Below, one piece after another: positions 30,594 to 39,313 of a stretch of 64,000 nt of DNA. Made by a program: the position numbers and the translations under genes. The stretch is taken from the IMG/VR virus record IMGVR_UViG_3300045747_000505, one strand, 5' to 3'. Each line of letters begins with the position of its first letter. Position 1 is the stretch's first letter. The DNA is from a virus. Taxonomy: Duplodnaviria > Caudoviricetes. The notes under the pieces are model-generated. The model did not search any database, had not been told where the DNA came from, and saw only the letters and a list, made by a program, of their open reading frames with translations.

Positions 30594-33365
30594 ATGACAC
30601 GTTTCCGTCTATCACGTCAAGCGACTCTGATCGCTATCGCCGTGGCAGGACTCGCTGGTACCGCTGGCGCGATCGCGCTCGTGGGCGACGATGTCTTCCG
30701 CGATCCTCCAGCAACCGACGATTCGCATCTGGTTCTGCCAAACGCGACCACTGCCGCCAACGTCGCGCTCAAGTCCTTGCCGCCAACGAATGAAGGTTCG
30801 TTCGAGACGTCCGCTGGACAGGGCACGCACTTCGACACGCGCGTCAACACAACGCTGCCACTGGCCGAGCACACCAGCCAGAACATCCCAACCAACGGTC
30901 GTCCGTCGCCGCTGTTCGGCGCCGTCGAGTTCACCTCGCCTGTGCTGCTGTTCGAGGAATTCGGTCCTGAGAAGCTCGACCCAACCGTCGTCGCTGGTCA
31001 GAACGCGCTCCCGTCACCGACCATCGGCTCGCTGCCCGAGCAGGACCCGACCGATGCAGCTCGCTCTGCGCCGAATGGCCAGGCTCTCGAGGACTTCCTC
31101 GCGCAGACCGGCATCGCTCCGTTCCCGAACTCGTTCTCCAACACGCTCGACAAGAACCCGTGGAACCAATCGGTCTCGGCGTTCATGAACCGTGTCGTCG
31201 CCGGCCCGGCAGAAGGTCGTCCGGGTGGCGAGGGCTGGGCTCACCAGCGCTGGAACGAGTTCAAGCCGCAGACGTTCTACAAGACGGCTCAAGCTGGCTC
31301 GCGCGTGAACCACGGCTTCCGTGACAACAAGCAGCTGCACGGCTACACCAAGGGTGAGTTCGGCGTTGGCGGTCTGTACCACAACACCGGTGGTCCGATC
31401 CCCGGCTCGACGGCTGGCATCGCCATCAAGTTCCACCCGGCCATGCCGACGCAGAAGCACAACGCCGTCTGGACCTTTGACGGCACCATGCCGCCGAAGC
31501 TGCTGATGGTGCGCTACGGCCAACCGGTCCTGATGCGCCACTACAACACGCTGCCAATCAACCCGGCCGCGAACATGGGCTTCGGTCTCCACACCATCTC
31601 GACGCACGAGCACAACGGCCACAACCCGGCCGAGAGCGACGGCGTGGCTCAGGCGTTCTTCTTCCCTGGTCAGTTCTACGACTACCGTTGGCCGATTCAG
31701 CTGGCCGGCTATGACACCATCAACACTGGTGCCACCGACCCGAAGGCTGCCTTCCCCTGCGCCGCCGGTGAAACGCTGTGGGTCAACGACGCCACGCCTG
31801 GTCTGAAGGACTGCAAGAACGGCACCATCAAGATCCGCGGCGACTGGCGCGAGACGATGTCGACTCACTGGTTCCATGACCACATGCTGGACTACACGGC
31901 GCAAAACGTGTACAAGGGCAATGCCGCCATGATGAACTACTACTCTGCGCTCGACCGTGGCAACGAAGCCGTGAACGACGGTGTGAACCTGCGCTTCCCG
32001 TCTGGCACCGCCAACGCTTGGGGCAACCGCGACTATGACGTCAACCTCGTGATCGGTGACAAGGCCTGGGACAAGGACGGTCAGCTGTGGTTCAACGTGT
32101 TCAACAAGAACGGTTTCCTCGGCGACCGTTTGCTGACCAACTTCCAGTACAAGCCGACGCTCGACGTTCGTGCACGCCGCTACCGCTTCCGTATCCTGAA
32201 CGGCTCGGTCTCCCGCTACCTGTCCATCGCGATTGTCAAGGAGCGCAACGACACCAAGGGTGAGCTCGCCGGTCAAGCCGGCAAGAGCTACGACCGCATC
32301 CCGTTCCACATGATCGGCAATGACGGCAACATCCTCGAGAACGCTGTCGCCTTCGATGGCAAGGCAGATCTGGATGGCAATGGCAACGCGATCGAACACA
32401 AGGGTACGCTGCCGCAGCAATCGATCGCCGAGCGCTACGACATCATCGTCGACTTCGCCAAGAACGGTATCAACCCTGGCGACAAGCTGTTCTTCGTCAA
32501 CCTACAAGAGCACCGTGCTCCTGAGATCACCGCTCGCCGTGTGCCGCTCGCCGACGTCCTGTCTGGCAAGTACAAGCCGGCAACGATGGTGGATGACAAT
32601 GGCGACGGCATCGCAGACCGCTGGATTGACAGTGACCCATGCGTCGGCAAGTTCTTCCAACTGAACGTCAAGGCCTACGCCGGTGTCGATCAGTCGATGG
32701 ACCCTGCCAACTACGTCGCTGGCAAGACCAAGATGATCCCGCTCAAGATCGACCGCACCTCGCGCACTGACTACTCCGGCAAGCTGGCCAACGCCGTGCA
32801 CCGCAGCTTCGTGTTCGGACACAGCGGTGGTACTGACGAGCAACCGTGGACCGTGAAGACCGACAACAGCTCTGGCTACAACGCCGACATGCGTCGTGTC
32901 TCTGCTACTCCGCAGCTGGCCAATGCGCCGACTGCTGGTGGCACGACTCAGAAGGATGCTCCGTACGAAATCTGGCACATCAAGCTCGGCGGTGGTTGGG
33001 ATCACCCGGTCCACATCCACTTCGAAGAAGGCGTGATTCTCCGTCGTGGTGGTAAGCTGCCGCCAGCCTGGGAGACCGGTGCTCGCAAGGATGTCTACCG
33101 AATCGGCCCTGACCTTCAGGCCACCGACAGCGTCGAGGTCGCTCTGCAGTTCCGTGAGTTCGCAGGTACCTTCGTGGAGCACTGCCACTCGACTCAACAC
33201 GAGGACAACTCGATGCTGATTCGCTGGGACCTCCAACGCCCAGGCCAGACGCTGGCGATGCCAGCCCCGATCCCGACGTGGGACGGCGTGTACTACACCG
33301 GCGTGGCTACCGAGCCATCAGCCAAATCTGGTGACGCCAAGGGTCCGAGCTACAAGTCGCCGTAA
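30594..33365 (+). CDS. Secreted multicopper oxidase 1 (923 aa; McoA-like putative Mn(II) oxidase)
   Basis: All four Cu motifs: THEHNGH, WFHDH, HPVHIH, HCHSTQHEDNSM (axial Met); N-terminal signal/anchor. Confidence 0.93.
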   Translation: MTRFRLSRQATLIAIAVAGLAGTAGAIALVGDDVFRDPPATDDSHLVLPNATTAANVALKSLPPTNEGSFETSAGQGTHFDTRVNTTLPLAEHTSQNIPTNGRPSPLFGAVEFTSPVLLFEEFGPEKLDPTVVAGQNALPSPTIGSLPEQDPTDAARSAPNGQALEDFLAQTGIAPFPNSFSNTLDKNPWNQSVSAFMNRVVAGPAEGRPGGEGWAHQRWNEFKPQTFYKTAQAGSRVNHGFRDNKQLHGYTKGEFGVGGLYHNTGGPIPGSTAGIAIKFHPAMPTQKHNAVWTFDGTMPPKLLMVRYGQPVLMRHYNTLPINPAANMGFGLHTISTHEHNGHNPAESDGVAQAFFFPGQFYDYRWPIQLAGYDTINTGATDPKAAFPCAAGETLWVNDATPGLKDCKNGTIKIRGDWRETMSTHWFHDHMLDYTAQNVYKGNAAMMNYYSALDRGNEAVNDGVNLRFPSGTANAWGNRDYDVNLVIGDKAWDKDGQLWFNVFNKNGFLGDRLLTNFQYKPTLDVRARRYRFRILNGSVSRYLSIAIVKERNDTKGELAGQAGKSYDRIPFHMIGNDGNILENAVAFDGKADLDGNGNAIEHKGTLPQQSIAERYDIIVDFAKNGINPGDKLFFVNLQEHRAPEITARRVPLADVLSGKYKPATMVDDNGDGIADRWIDSDPCVGKFFQLNVKAYAGVDQSMDPANYVAGKTKMIPLKIDRTSRTDYSGKLANAVHRSFVFGHSGGTDEQPWTVKTDNSSGYNADMRRVSATPQLANAPTAGGTTQKDAPYEIWHIKLGGGWDHPVHIHFEEGVILRRGGKLPPAWETGARKDVYRIGPDLQATDSVEVALQFREFAGTFVEHCHSTQHEDNSMLIRWDLQRPGQTLAMPAPIPTWDGVYYTGVATEPSAKSGDAKGPSYKSP

Positions 33366-33411
33366 GGCGTGATCAACGGGGAGGCTTCGGCCTCCACTCA
33401 CTGAGCCAACC

Positions 33412-37500: not shown

Positions 37501-39313
37501 CTCCAGCGTCGGCACCACCGGCACTGGCGCTCGTGCCACGACCACCGGCTCCGTCGCCGCGCTGCTGCTGAACATCCCTGATCCGCTGAACCCTGGCACT
37601 GCTGGCGGTGGTGGCTACGACAACCTCGTGACCCTCGCAACCGTGGACGCTACCTCGACCGTCGCTGGTCTGACCATCACGCTGACCGCTCCGCCGGTTG
37701 GTGGTGTGACTGCTACGGCTGGTGCGACTGGCAAGGTCTTCGACATCACCTTCACGAACCTCGGCAAGAACTACACCTCGGCTCCGACCGTGGCTGTGAC
37801 GGCTCCCGTCGCCAACACCGTGCTCGCCGCACCGCTGGTCACAGCAGCTGCGTCGACCGATACGGCCGCTGGTGTTCCGCAAGGTCGAATCCTCGTCAAG
37901 ACCAAGGCGATTCAGGAGCTCTTCGAGCCGACCTACGGCCGACTCAACGCTACGCTGGGTGTCGAGATTCCGTTCACTAGCGCGCTGACACAGACGACGA
38001 TCCCGCTGGGTTACGTCGATCAGGCGACCGAAGAATTCGCCGACGGTGAAGTTCAGATCTGGAAGATCACGCACAACGGTGTGGACAGCCACCCAGTGCA
38101 CTTCCACCTGCTCAACGTGCAGCTGATCAACCGCGTGGGTTGGGACAACTTCGTCACGCCGCCCGAGCCGAACGAGTTGGGCTGGAAGGAGACGGTCAAG
38201 ATGTCGCCGCTGGAAGACGTGATCGTCGCTGTTCGCGCCAAGAAGCCGACGCTGCCCGGCTTCGGTCTGCCGAACAGCCAGCGCCTGCAAGATCCGACGC
38301 AGCCCGAAGGTGCGATGACCGGCTTCACGCAGATCGACCCGAACACTGGTCTGCCGGCTCCGATGACCAACATGTTCGTCGACTACGGTTGGGAATACGT
38401 CTGGCACTGCCACATCCTCGGCCACGAAGAAAACGACTTCATGCGCGCCATCAAGTTCAACGCCAACGAAGCGATGCCAATCGCCGGCGTGCTGACTGGT
38501 GTGCAAGCTGGTTCGACCGTGGCGCTGAACTGGACCGACCTGTCGCAGACCGAGTTCATGTACCGCGTCGAGCGTGCTGCCCCTGGTGGTACGGTCTGGA
38601 CGGTGCTCGACAACCTGCTGGCCAACAGCACGAAGTACGTCGACCTCACGGCCGGTCTCAACGCGAACTACGACTACCGCGTCGTCGCAGTGGGTCAAGC
38701 TGGTGAAGTCGCTTCGAACGTGGTCGCAGTTCGCTCGATGCCGTCTGGTCTCGGTGCTCTGACCTTCGTGCCGCGCACCATTGCTCCAGTGACTCTCAAC
38801 TGGGGTGACGCAACCGCCGAGACGTCGTATCAAGTTCAACGTGCCGTCAGCGGTTCGACGAACTTCGCTACGATCGCCACGCTGGCTGCCGATGCCGTGA
38901 CCTACACCGACAACACCGCCGTGGGCACCACGGCCTACGTCTACCGTGTCATCGCGCTGAACGCCTCGGGTCAAGCCGTGTCGAACACCGTCAATGTGCC
39001 GATCGTGCCGCTAGCTCTGCCTGGCGCTCCGAGAAGCCTGAATGGCAACAAGACGAACATCAACGCTTCGATGGCTCGCATCACGTTGACCTGGCGCGCT
39101 CCGACCACCGGTGGTGCAGTGGCTTCGTACATCATTCAGTCGTGCTCCGGCCCGACGAACTGCACGAACTTCACGCAGCTTGCCACGACGGCGAACCTGA
39201 CCTACACAACCGGTCAAGTCAACCGTGGAACGCCGTTCAGCTTCCGCATCCAGGCGGTGAATGCCGCTGGCAAGTCGACGACGTTCAGCAACGTGTTCCG
39301 CGTCACACCGTAA
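34559..39313 (+). CDS. Giant secreted multicopper oxidase 2 (1584 aa; MofA-like putative Mn(II) oxidase) with C-terminal FN3 repeats
   Basis: Sec signal (AQA); Cu motifs [32 protein letters not shown]; about three FN3-like repeats (LNW...Y-V-R...Y-YRV-A). Confidence 0.92.

Follow-up and report, generated by a model that had tools for sequence, protein, structure and literature searches.

What would a bacteriophage do with two large multicopper oxidases (MCOs)? The question is raised by a 64,000-nt stretch of viral DNA from IMG/VR record IMGVR_UViG_3300045747_000505 (the window; coordinates are window positions unless another contig is named). Its plus strand carries an oxidase block that encodes a first MCO (MCO1), a fusion of a SCO1/SenC domain with a cytochrome c (the SCO–cytochrome c protein) and a second, larger MCO (MCO2). 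A preliminary description, made from the sequence alone, had proposed that these genes form a phage-borne system for manganese oxidation, and the three open reading frames (ORFs) lie where it had placed them, all on the plus strand (Table 1). We favour, with moderate confidence, the reading that positions 30398-39365 are genuine auxiliary metabolic cargo of a ~350-kb jumbo phage of freshwater ponds and wetlands, driving the oxidation of Mn and possibly of Fe.

Two oxidase modules and their bacterial relatives

MCO1 contains the Pfam domains Cu-oxidase_2 and Cu-oxidase_3. Its copper motifs, described earlier as complete, were found intact (HEHNG at residue 338, WFHDH at 426, HPVHIH at 804 and HCHSTQHEDNSM at 863). 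The ligands H338/H340, H428/H430, H804/H807/H809 and H863/C864/H865/H869/M874 occupied invariant columns in an alignment with 17 bacterial homologues, and the MCO ligand set (10 His, 1 Cys and an axial Met) was present in the order and spacing of the McoA family. An AlphaFold2 model derived from an alignment of 18 sequences was of poor quality (mean predicted local distance difference test score, pLDDT, 47; predicted template modelling score, pTM, 0.47).

The best match of MCO1 was a protein encoded by a 3.6-kb Logan contig from a different sample (L005, 91% identity), followed by proteins from metagenomes and metagenome-assembled genomes (MAGs) (68-76%), from Sphaerotilus mobilis and Leptothrix discophora (65%), from Leptothrix cholodnii SP-6 (64%) and from Pseudomonas (60-63% overall). 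No bacterial copy in the homology search was more than 76% identical, and a scan of JGI metagenomes with MCO1 returned only copies of at most 66% identity and no close phage relative; an exact-match protein index contained no entry for MCO1. The likeness to McoA that had been proposed from size and architecture was borne out by 62-63% identity over 97-99% of the length to 1131-1142-aa ‘Ig-like domain’ proteins of the Pseudomonas putida group, and by the conserved SCO gene that follows MCO1. In P. putida GB-1, genetic work has proven that McoA, a protein of 1,131 aa, oxidises Mn(II)/Mn(III), and the only conserved partner in its operon is a SCO1/SenC gene directly downstream (PMC13689576); the equivalence of the proteins compared here to McoA rests on that length, the species group and the SCO neighbour. 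In a phylogenetic tree (here and for MCO2 a quick-search, midpoint-rooted tree built from database top matches, without distant outgroups), MCO1 and the L005 protein fell within a 15-row clade (SH-aLRT 100) together with S. mobilis, L. discophora and freshwater MAGs, and the Pseudomonas McoA clade was placed in the opposite half.

The middle protein had been described as a SCO domain fused to a CxxCH haem protein, in agreement with its Pfam matches to SCO1-SenC (1.6e-19) and Cytochrom_C (4.9e-06), its CxxxC motif (CSATC at residue 79) and its single haem motif (CQSCH at residue 237). It presumably serves the McoA module as copper chaperone and as redox partner. Its gene starts 46 nt after the stop codon of MCO1. 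The same order was found in L. discophora (L004), a freshwater MAG (L003) and a JGI contig (L002), and 51 of the 69 metagenome loci with room downstream had a SCO/cytochrome c fusion directly after the McoA-like gene. In two freshwater contigs of Burkholderiales type (L002, 672-7492; L003, 3766-11398), a single SCO–cytochrome c gene is flanked by two McoA-type paralogues, each 72-76% identical to phage MCO1. The resulting MCO-SCO-MCO layout is similar to that in the phage, but its second oxidase is of the McoA type and not of the MofA type.

MCO2 contains Cu-oxidase_2 and C-terminal fn3 domains (Pfam), a Sec-type signal (…SAQA, then G) and a Gly/Thr-rich region of GGSGY..APTVT repeats. Here too the copper motifs proved complete (HLHGG at residue 324, WYHDH at 404, HPVHFH at 1178 and the fourth motif at 1283), and the ligand His, Cys and Met residues were all in invariant columns of an alignment with 14 bacterial homologues. 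Its proposed kinship with MofA was upheld by an alignment with L. discophora SS-1 MofA (P71431, E = 0) that spans 91% of MCO2 at 53% identity. The best local BLAST alignments reached 64-66% identity, with MAG and metagenome proteins, and the nearest freshwater Pseudomonadota MAG protein was 72% identical over the aligned tree columns. Leptothrix sp. proteins were 56-61% identical, and several L. ochracea proteins were among the relatives. In the tree, MCO2 belonged to a 22-row clade (SH-aLRT 99) with Leptothrix sp. BB-4, a Leptothrix MAG and Methyloterricola, nested in a larger family that contains SS-1 MofA.

No homologue of mofB (FKBP) or mofC was found anywhere in the window, which sets MCO2 apart from the mofABC operon in context and not in protein family; two bacterial loci, L009 and L010, have both genes. 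In these loci (L009, 9295-22948; L010, 634-20499) the MofA-type gene is followed by genes for an FKBP (mofB), a large cytochrome c protein (mofC) and a SCO/AhpC-TSA protein, and is flanked by type II secretion secretin and pseudopilin genes, which suggests dedicated export.

In a hydropathy script, used without a trained signal-peptide predictor, each of the three phage proteins starts with a hydrophobic, signal-like segment. Such predicted export signals are typical of periplasmic or secreted host proteins, and speak against the idea that the oxidases are virion- or lysis-associated tools, for example displayed through fn3 domains, that act on the sheath or mineral crust of the host as the phage enters or leaves. 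In favour of that idea, phage virion proteins often carry fn3 and Ig-like domains, and the product of a nearby gene, a 937-aa fn3 protein, matches a ‘virion structural protein’ PHROG. However, bacterial MofA homologues carry the same fn3 domains, so those of MCO2 were inherited rather than acquired in the phage, and MCOs oxidise but cannot dissolve Mn or Fe oxides. We regard a role as virion or lysis tools as very unlikely.

In gene content, the block brings together an mcoA-SCO/cytochrome c pair and a lone mofA-type gene, two modules of bacterial type that as a rule are not linked. Across 80 bacterial McoA loci, no MofA-like gene lay within 10 kb; the phage has mcoA-SCO and mofA side by side, where bacteria have them in separate operons.

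Residence of the block in a jumbo phage

The contig had been taken to be viral, and this was confirmed by PHROG matches on both sides of the block and by a gene order shared with IMG/VR jumbo-phage fragments. The flanking matches include a clamp loader (phrog_168, 5e-79) and a virion structural protein (phrog_1383, 1e-65), and further phage families in the flanks are an ATP-dependent DNA ligase, an RNA ligase, a nucleotidyltransferase, NadV, a NatV-like nicotinamide mononucleotide adenylyltransferase (NMNAT)/NUDIX protein, a PurZ-like synthetase, and homing and HNH endonucleases. Among isolated phages, the best matches were to the jumbo phages Burkholderia FLC9 (322 kb), Xanthomonas XacN1 (385 kb) and Ralstonia RsoM2USA (344 kb). 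The fragments L006 (106 kb), L007 (24 kb) and L008 (42 kb) share gene order with the window over many genes. Their lengths, together with CheckV completeness of 29%, 7% and 12%, respectively, indicate genomes of ~350 kb. Searches for the Pfam families Terminase_6N, Terminase_6C, Phage_sheath_1 and Baseplate_J gave no match in these fragments, which are only 7-29% complete.

In all three fragments, the homologue of the gene at 29419-30078 is followed by at most ~1.1 kb of small ORFs and then by the homologue of the gene at 40134-41279, and no Cu-oxidase domain was found in their records. Because the fragments lack the block at this locus, we regard it as a lineage-specific insertion of ~9 kb at a variable spot of a conserved backbone.

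Such a pattern raises the question of an assembly artefact or host contamination, in which bacterial DNA was misjoined to a phage contig. Sequencing depth over the MCO genes spikes to as much as 1277 at the conserved copper motifs, because many bacterial MCO genes are present in the same communities, and repeats of this depth can cause misjoins. In one wetland run (X2), the depth of the Logan contig was low over the left flank. On the other hand, when coverage across the junctions was checked, as the preliminary description had advised, Logan contigs of a pond run (X1) matched 29736-31508 and 38417-42000 with zero mismatches, bridging both junctions at a uniform depth of 24.6-31.8 across flanks and block. 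X1 is possibly the source sample of the window, and independent support comes from X2 and a second wetland run (X3), which have other sample and study codes and in which zero-mismatch Logan contigs likewise bridge the right junction. The stretch 28500-32500, which includes the left junction, was represented by 0.93, 0.91, 0.59 and 0.47 of sampled words in four pond or wetland runs with differing sample and study codes, the two highest values coming from different studies. The absence of any bacterial copy above 76% identity, together with the phage-like codon usage and the phage-specific 13-mer described below, also speaks against an artefact, which we consider extremely unlikely; the block does not appear to be a chimeric host insertion.

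The codon usage of the block had been likened to that of core phage genes, and the values agree. GC content at third codon positions (GC3) was 0.79 for MCO1, 0.71 for the SCO gene and 0.79 for MCO2, compared with 0.80 ± 0.03 for 17 backbone genes and 0.82-0.94 for bacterial homologues (most 0.85-0.94, one MofA homologue 0.82). The correlation of relative synonymous codon usage (RSCU) with the backbone was 0.96 for MCO1 and 0.97 for MCO2, and leave-one-out values for the backbone genes themselves averaged 0.90 (0.70-0.96). Codon-usage distances were 1.9-2.0 for the phage oxidases and 2.8-4.3 for bacterial homologues. The 8-mer TGAACCTA occurs 10 times in the window (0.5 expected), mostly 90-150 nt before plus-strand gene starts, and is almost absent from bacterial McoA loci (1.13 Mb). 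Inside the block it forms part of the 13-mer CTGAACCTAGATT, of which an identical copy lies at 49787, upstream of the NadV gene (0 expected by chance). Since GC3 and RSCU match the backbone rather than the bacterial homologues, and a phage-specific motif lies within the block, its residence in the phage has probably been long.

Selection on the genes was estimated from L005, which is 86% identical at the nucleotide level. The ratio of nonsynonymous to synonymous divergence (dN/dS) was 0.117 for MCO1 (dS 0.50) and 0.135 for the SCO part, values that indicate that the genes are under purifying selection. To judge from the invariant copper ligands and the low dN/dS, they are functional. L005 itself has phage-like codon usage (r = 0.98, GC3 0.77) and a TATAAT box with a GTTACAG element upstream, resembling the promoters of the window, and this short contig probably derives from a sister phage.

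These results also bear on whether the block is selfish or neutral passenger DNA from a host, placed at a variable spot, perhaps with the adjoining homing endonuclease, and of no benefit to the phage. The site is a hot spot of plasticity where relatives hold other small ORFs, L006, L007 and L008 have no block there, and the endonuclease abuts it. Passenger DNA fits poorly with 8.7 kb of intact coding sequence that keeps all catalytic ligands, with dN/dS of 0.12-0.135 against a copy at dS ~0.5 that is itself phage-like in codon usage, or with GC3 and RSCU that are fully adapted to the phage. We hold this explanation to be unlikely. The codon usage of the endonuclease is quite different (RSCU r = 0.42 with the backbone, GC3 0.56), which argues that it arrived separately from the oxidase block. 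It overlaps the start of the NatV-like gene by ATGA, and its own start context, CGAGGAGCTCGA(A)CATG, is that which precedes the NatV-like gene in L006 and L007; it is probably a separate and more recent insertion. No direct repeats flanking the block were found, and there is therefore no recombination signature.

Layout, transcription signals and neighbouring genes

The features of the block and its borders are collected in Table 1.

Table 1. Features of the oxidase block and its immediate flanks
Feature	Position	Strand	Evidence or remark
Left flank, two conserved phage genes (no function assigned)	29419-30078 and 30082-30360	+	Homologues in L006, L007, L008
Intrinsic terminator at the end of the preceding phage gene, marking the left border of the block	30380-30397	+	7-bp GC-rich stem, then T-tract
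TATAAT -10 box, form TGTATAATG	30529-30534	+	60 nt before the MCO1 start codon
MCO1, 923-aa McoA-type multicopper oxidase with N-terminal signal-like segment	30594-33365	+	Pfam, copper motifs, homology
SCO1/SenC–class I cytochrome c fusion, 329 aa	33412-34401	+	Pfam; CSATC and CQSCH motifs
13-mer CTGAACCTAGATT containing TGAACCTA, between the SCO gene and MCO2	34406-34418	+	Second identical copy at 49787
Strong intrinsic terminator after the mcoA-SCO unit	34426-34455	+	13-bp stem, then T-tract
TATAAT -10 box	34499-34504	+	55 nt before the MCO2 start codon
MCO2, 1584-aa MofA-type multicopper oxidase	34559-39313	+	Pfam, copper motifs, homology to P71431
Intrinsic terminator behind MCO2, marking the right border of the block	39342-39365	+	10-bp stem, then T-tract
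Free-standing homing endonuclease	39484-40137	+	phrog_314, 7.8e-29
Right flank, conserved phage NMN adenylyltransferase/NUDIX (NatV-like) gene	40134-41279	+	phrog_395, 3.1e-54

The view that the block has its own promoters and terminators stood in part: three hairpin/T-tract sites and two TATAAT boxes were found, and -35 elements were not recovered. Because of the terminators and the TATAAT boxes before both oxidases, the block appears to comprise two transcription units, mcoA-SCO and mofA. The window contains 16 TATAAT sequences on the plus strand and 2 on the minus strand, mostly intergenic, and the TGTATAATG form recurs at further intergenic plus-strand sites. No sigma-54-type -24/-12 element was seen upstream of MCO1 on inspection by eye.

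Ahead of many copies of the TGTATAATG form stands GTTACAC, often with an inverted GTGTAAC as its partner in an operator-like arrangement, giving a promoter-like architecture specific to the phage. Intergenic examples lie at 4815-4847, 7848-7890, 11009-11051, 14669-14700 and 54763-54796. A second promoter-like class has TGAACCTA ~40 nt upstream of TATAAT, at 22284, 39373, 49788 and 58575.

Several neighbouring genes are of interest in their own right. The gene at 44214-45431 (plus strand) encodes an adenylosuccinate-synthetase homologue whose best match is phrog_1211 (PurZ-type, 3.9e-60; Pfam Adenylsucc_synt, 5.3e-44), and from this PurZ-like gene the phage might replace adenine by 2-aminoadenine (Z-genome). 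The NatV-like gene and a gene for the nicotinamide phosphoribosyltransferase NadV (49893-51413, plus strand) form a complete NAD+ salvage pair. The two are adjacent or close in L006, L007 and L008; in the window ~8.6 kb lies between them, including the PurZ-like gene and the gene for the 937-aa fn3 protein. Host-like cargo that is kept in L006 comprises genes for a 564-aa protein with a C-terminal OmpA domain (22386-24080, plus strand) and an ABC-transporter ATPase (25885-26679, plus strand). ARAGORN predicted, at 53927-54302, 54817-54891 and 63357-63683 (plus strand), a transfer-messenger RNA (tag ANEANFRLAA), an amber-reading tRNA with a CTA anticodon (labelled Pyl), one tRNA-Val and two tRNA-Tyr.

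Proposed role and known systems

Kinship with copper-resistance enzymes, which by the preliminary description would have told against its proposal, was not borne out: against the CueO model MCO1 scored 68.7 and MCO2 55.2 bits, far below the equivalog cut-off of 525, and at 923 and 1584 aa both differ from the ~500-aa, three-domain proteins of the CueO/CopA group, in which membership was rejected. Membership in MnxG was also rejected, as an NCBIfam scan of both MCOs gave only sub-threshold matches to CueO, PhsA and FtsP.

The Sphaerotilus–Leptothrix group (sheathed, metal-oxidising Burkholderiales) is the likely donor of the block, because the closest relatives of both modules are found there; the host, too, probably lies in or near this group. 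The pond and wetland origin of the runs fits such a donor and host.

In an infected cell, the block would be transcribed from its own TATAAT promoters as two terminator-bounded units, and the three proteins would be exported via their N-terminal signals. The SCO–cytochrome c protein would load copper into one or both oxidases, which the secretion machinery of the host would deliver to the cell surface or sheath. There they would pass electrons from Mn(II)/Mn(III), and possibly Fe(II), to O2, as McoA does in P. putida (PMC13689576), and the formation of metal oxides would be sustained or boosted during infection. Expression, secretion, substrate and benefit to the phage are all inferred from sequence. 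Benefits of the kind first suggested for it, such as armour or the detoxification of reactive oxygen species (ROS) or metals, are speculation.

Several points weigh against cargo that drives Mn oxidation. Neither the terminase gene nor the major capsid gene falls within the window, and the runs listed for 33000-36000 included no RNA run. In a generic sigma-70 scan, no -35 element matched upstream of MCO1 or MCO2, and the plus-strand promoters were not called. The comparison with McoA was made through P. putida-group orthologues of the same length. To our knowledge, Mn oxidation by MofA has never been shown biochemically. The phage mofA is without its usual partners mofB, mofC and type II secretion genes, so its activity would need the host to supply them. 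Finally, Sphaerotilus strains carry such MCO families yet reportedly do not oxidise Mn (PMC13386937).

MofA is described as a putative Mn oxidase of Leptothrix (bioRxiv 10.1101/2022.11.10.515945; PMC13386937), and because its activity is putative and there are Sphaerotilus carriers without Mn oxidation, Fe(II) or organic compounds may be oxidised instead. This is a serious alternative to Mn: the block would be real and functional phage cargo acting on Fe(II) (in sheath encrustation or iron uptake), on phenolic or humic organics in the manner of a laccase, or on Cu(I) for detoxification. The substrate range of MCOs cannot be read from sequence, and the nearest solved structures, which match the two oxidases at the level of single domains only, are those of bilirubin oxidase, CotA and CueO. 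Multiple mofA copies occur in the Fe(II)-dependent L. ochracea group (PMC13386937), proteins of which are among the relatives of MCO2, and the MCOs of giant viruses have been interpreted as aids to iron uptake (PMC9270025). Against a substrate other than Mn stand the place of MCO1 in the McoA family, with its genetic evidence for Mn(II,III) oxidation in P. putida GB-1 (PMC13689576), and the failure of either MCO to reach the CueO, PhsA or FtsP cut-offs. The presence of two distinct ‘Mn oxidase’ families in one block also suggests a shared process. We judge a different substrate possible, at clearly lower probability than Mn.

If the proposed role in Mn oxidation is correct, biomineralisation and metal oxidation would join the processes that viruses manipulate. 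The physiological function of bacterial Mn oxidation, a century-old question, has been called ‘elusive’ (PMC11930936). A lytic-type jumbo phage that keeps 8.7 kb under purifying selection and in its own codon usage implies that the activity is of benefit in the course of one infection cycle, and the question of why bacteria oxidise Mn becomes testable through the phage. The presence of mcoA-SCO beside mofA in a phage is independent genetic evidence that both enzyme families serve one process. The findings would bear on how Mn and Fe oxides form, how trace metals are scavenged and how carbon is turned over, in wetlands as in water-treatment biofilters. More tentatively, the phage may reprogramme metal redox chemistry outside the cells of sheathed bacteria that oxidise Fe and Mn, the two modules having been joined since an oxide coat or Mn(III) chemistry raises its yield; viruses would then directly drive the formation of Mn, and perhaps Fe, oxide minerals in wetlands. 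Possible routes are protection of the infected filament from ROS and ultraviolet light, release of carbon from humic matter, and a mineral barrier against competing phages and grazers.

The preliminary description knew of no phage system of this type, and none was found in the literature and sequence collections searched. In a tblastn search of 50,697 GenBank phage records, MCO1 matched only small MCOs of Streptococcus and Listeria phages, over a single domain (at most 22% of MCO1, at 27-37% identity), MCO2 gave only C-terminal matches, mainly in the fn3 region, and nothing matched the SCO–cytochrome c fusion. The 2.9 million contigs of IMG/VR yielded one match, a giant-virus MAG contig with an MCO of 45% identity, and profile-based scans of IMG/VR for further McoA and MofA relatives, which used two peptide patterns each and had limited sensitivity, found none. 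This contig (IMGVR_UViG_GVMAG-M-3300017963-13_000001, 3410-7821 and 9073-16677) carries a SCO1/SenC gene and a gene for a 1015-aa McoA-like MCO (the 45% match to MCO1), with a split, intein-containing RNA polymerase Rpb1 gene ~1.3 kb from the MCO/SCO module; either the module was acquired independently by a virus, or it results from faulty binning or assembly. No such phage was described in the literature searched for manganese oxidase, MofA, McoA or Leptothrix in connection with auxiliary genes of phages or viruses. In the nearest study, of a brine pool, a jumbo phage was tied to a Mn-oxidising host by CRISPR spacers, and mnxG was in the host, not the phage. The components and the concept of auxiliary genes are known; the type of cargo and its composite arrangement are new.

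Comparison with the mcoA-SCO pair of P. putida GB-1 (PputGB1_2665, PputGB1_2666) shows that phage MCO1 shares four identical and identically spaced copper motifs. The gene order of GB-1, Leptothrix and Sphaerotilus, with SCO1/SenC-cytochrome c directly downstream, is also retained (PMC13689576). Unlike Pseudomonas McoA, and like the Leptothrix copies, MCO1 is without C-terminal Ig-like domains (923 versus 1131 aa). Its promoter is of the TATAAT type, whereas sigma-54/MnxR control has been described in Pseudomonas, and the pair differs from its bacterial counterparts in being phage-encoded and followed by a mofA-type gene. With MofA of L. discophora SS-1, MCO2 shares the copper motifs and the central GGSGY..APTVT repeats, and its C-terminal fn3 domains are found in many MofA homologues. 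However, it belongs to a paralogous clade and not to the SS-1 clade itself, and in contrast to the mofABC operon the phage mofA stands alone: mofB (FKBP), mofC (cytochrome c), the second SCO gene and the adjoining type II secretion genes are absent from the window.

Virus-borne MCOs, likewise copper-oxidase cargo, have been reported in viruses of ammonia-oxidising archaea, in Streptococcus suis prophages and in giant viruses (PMC9270025), but these were read as genes for copper resistance, nitrifier metabolism or iron uptake and not as Mn oxidases. The closest parallel in logic is cyanophage psbA, which, like the phage oxidases, is a host-derived gene for a key host process, kept in phage codon usage and under purifying selection. 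Expression of the oxidases would then presumably sustain the process after host shut-off. Unlike that of psbA-type genes, the process would be extracellular metal oxidation and biomineralisation rather than energy or nucleotide metabolism.

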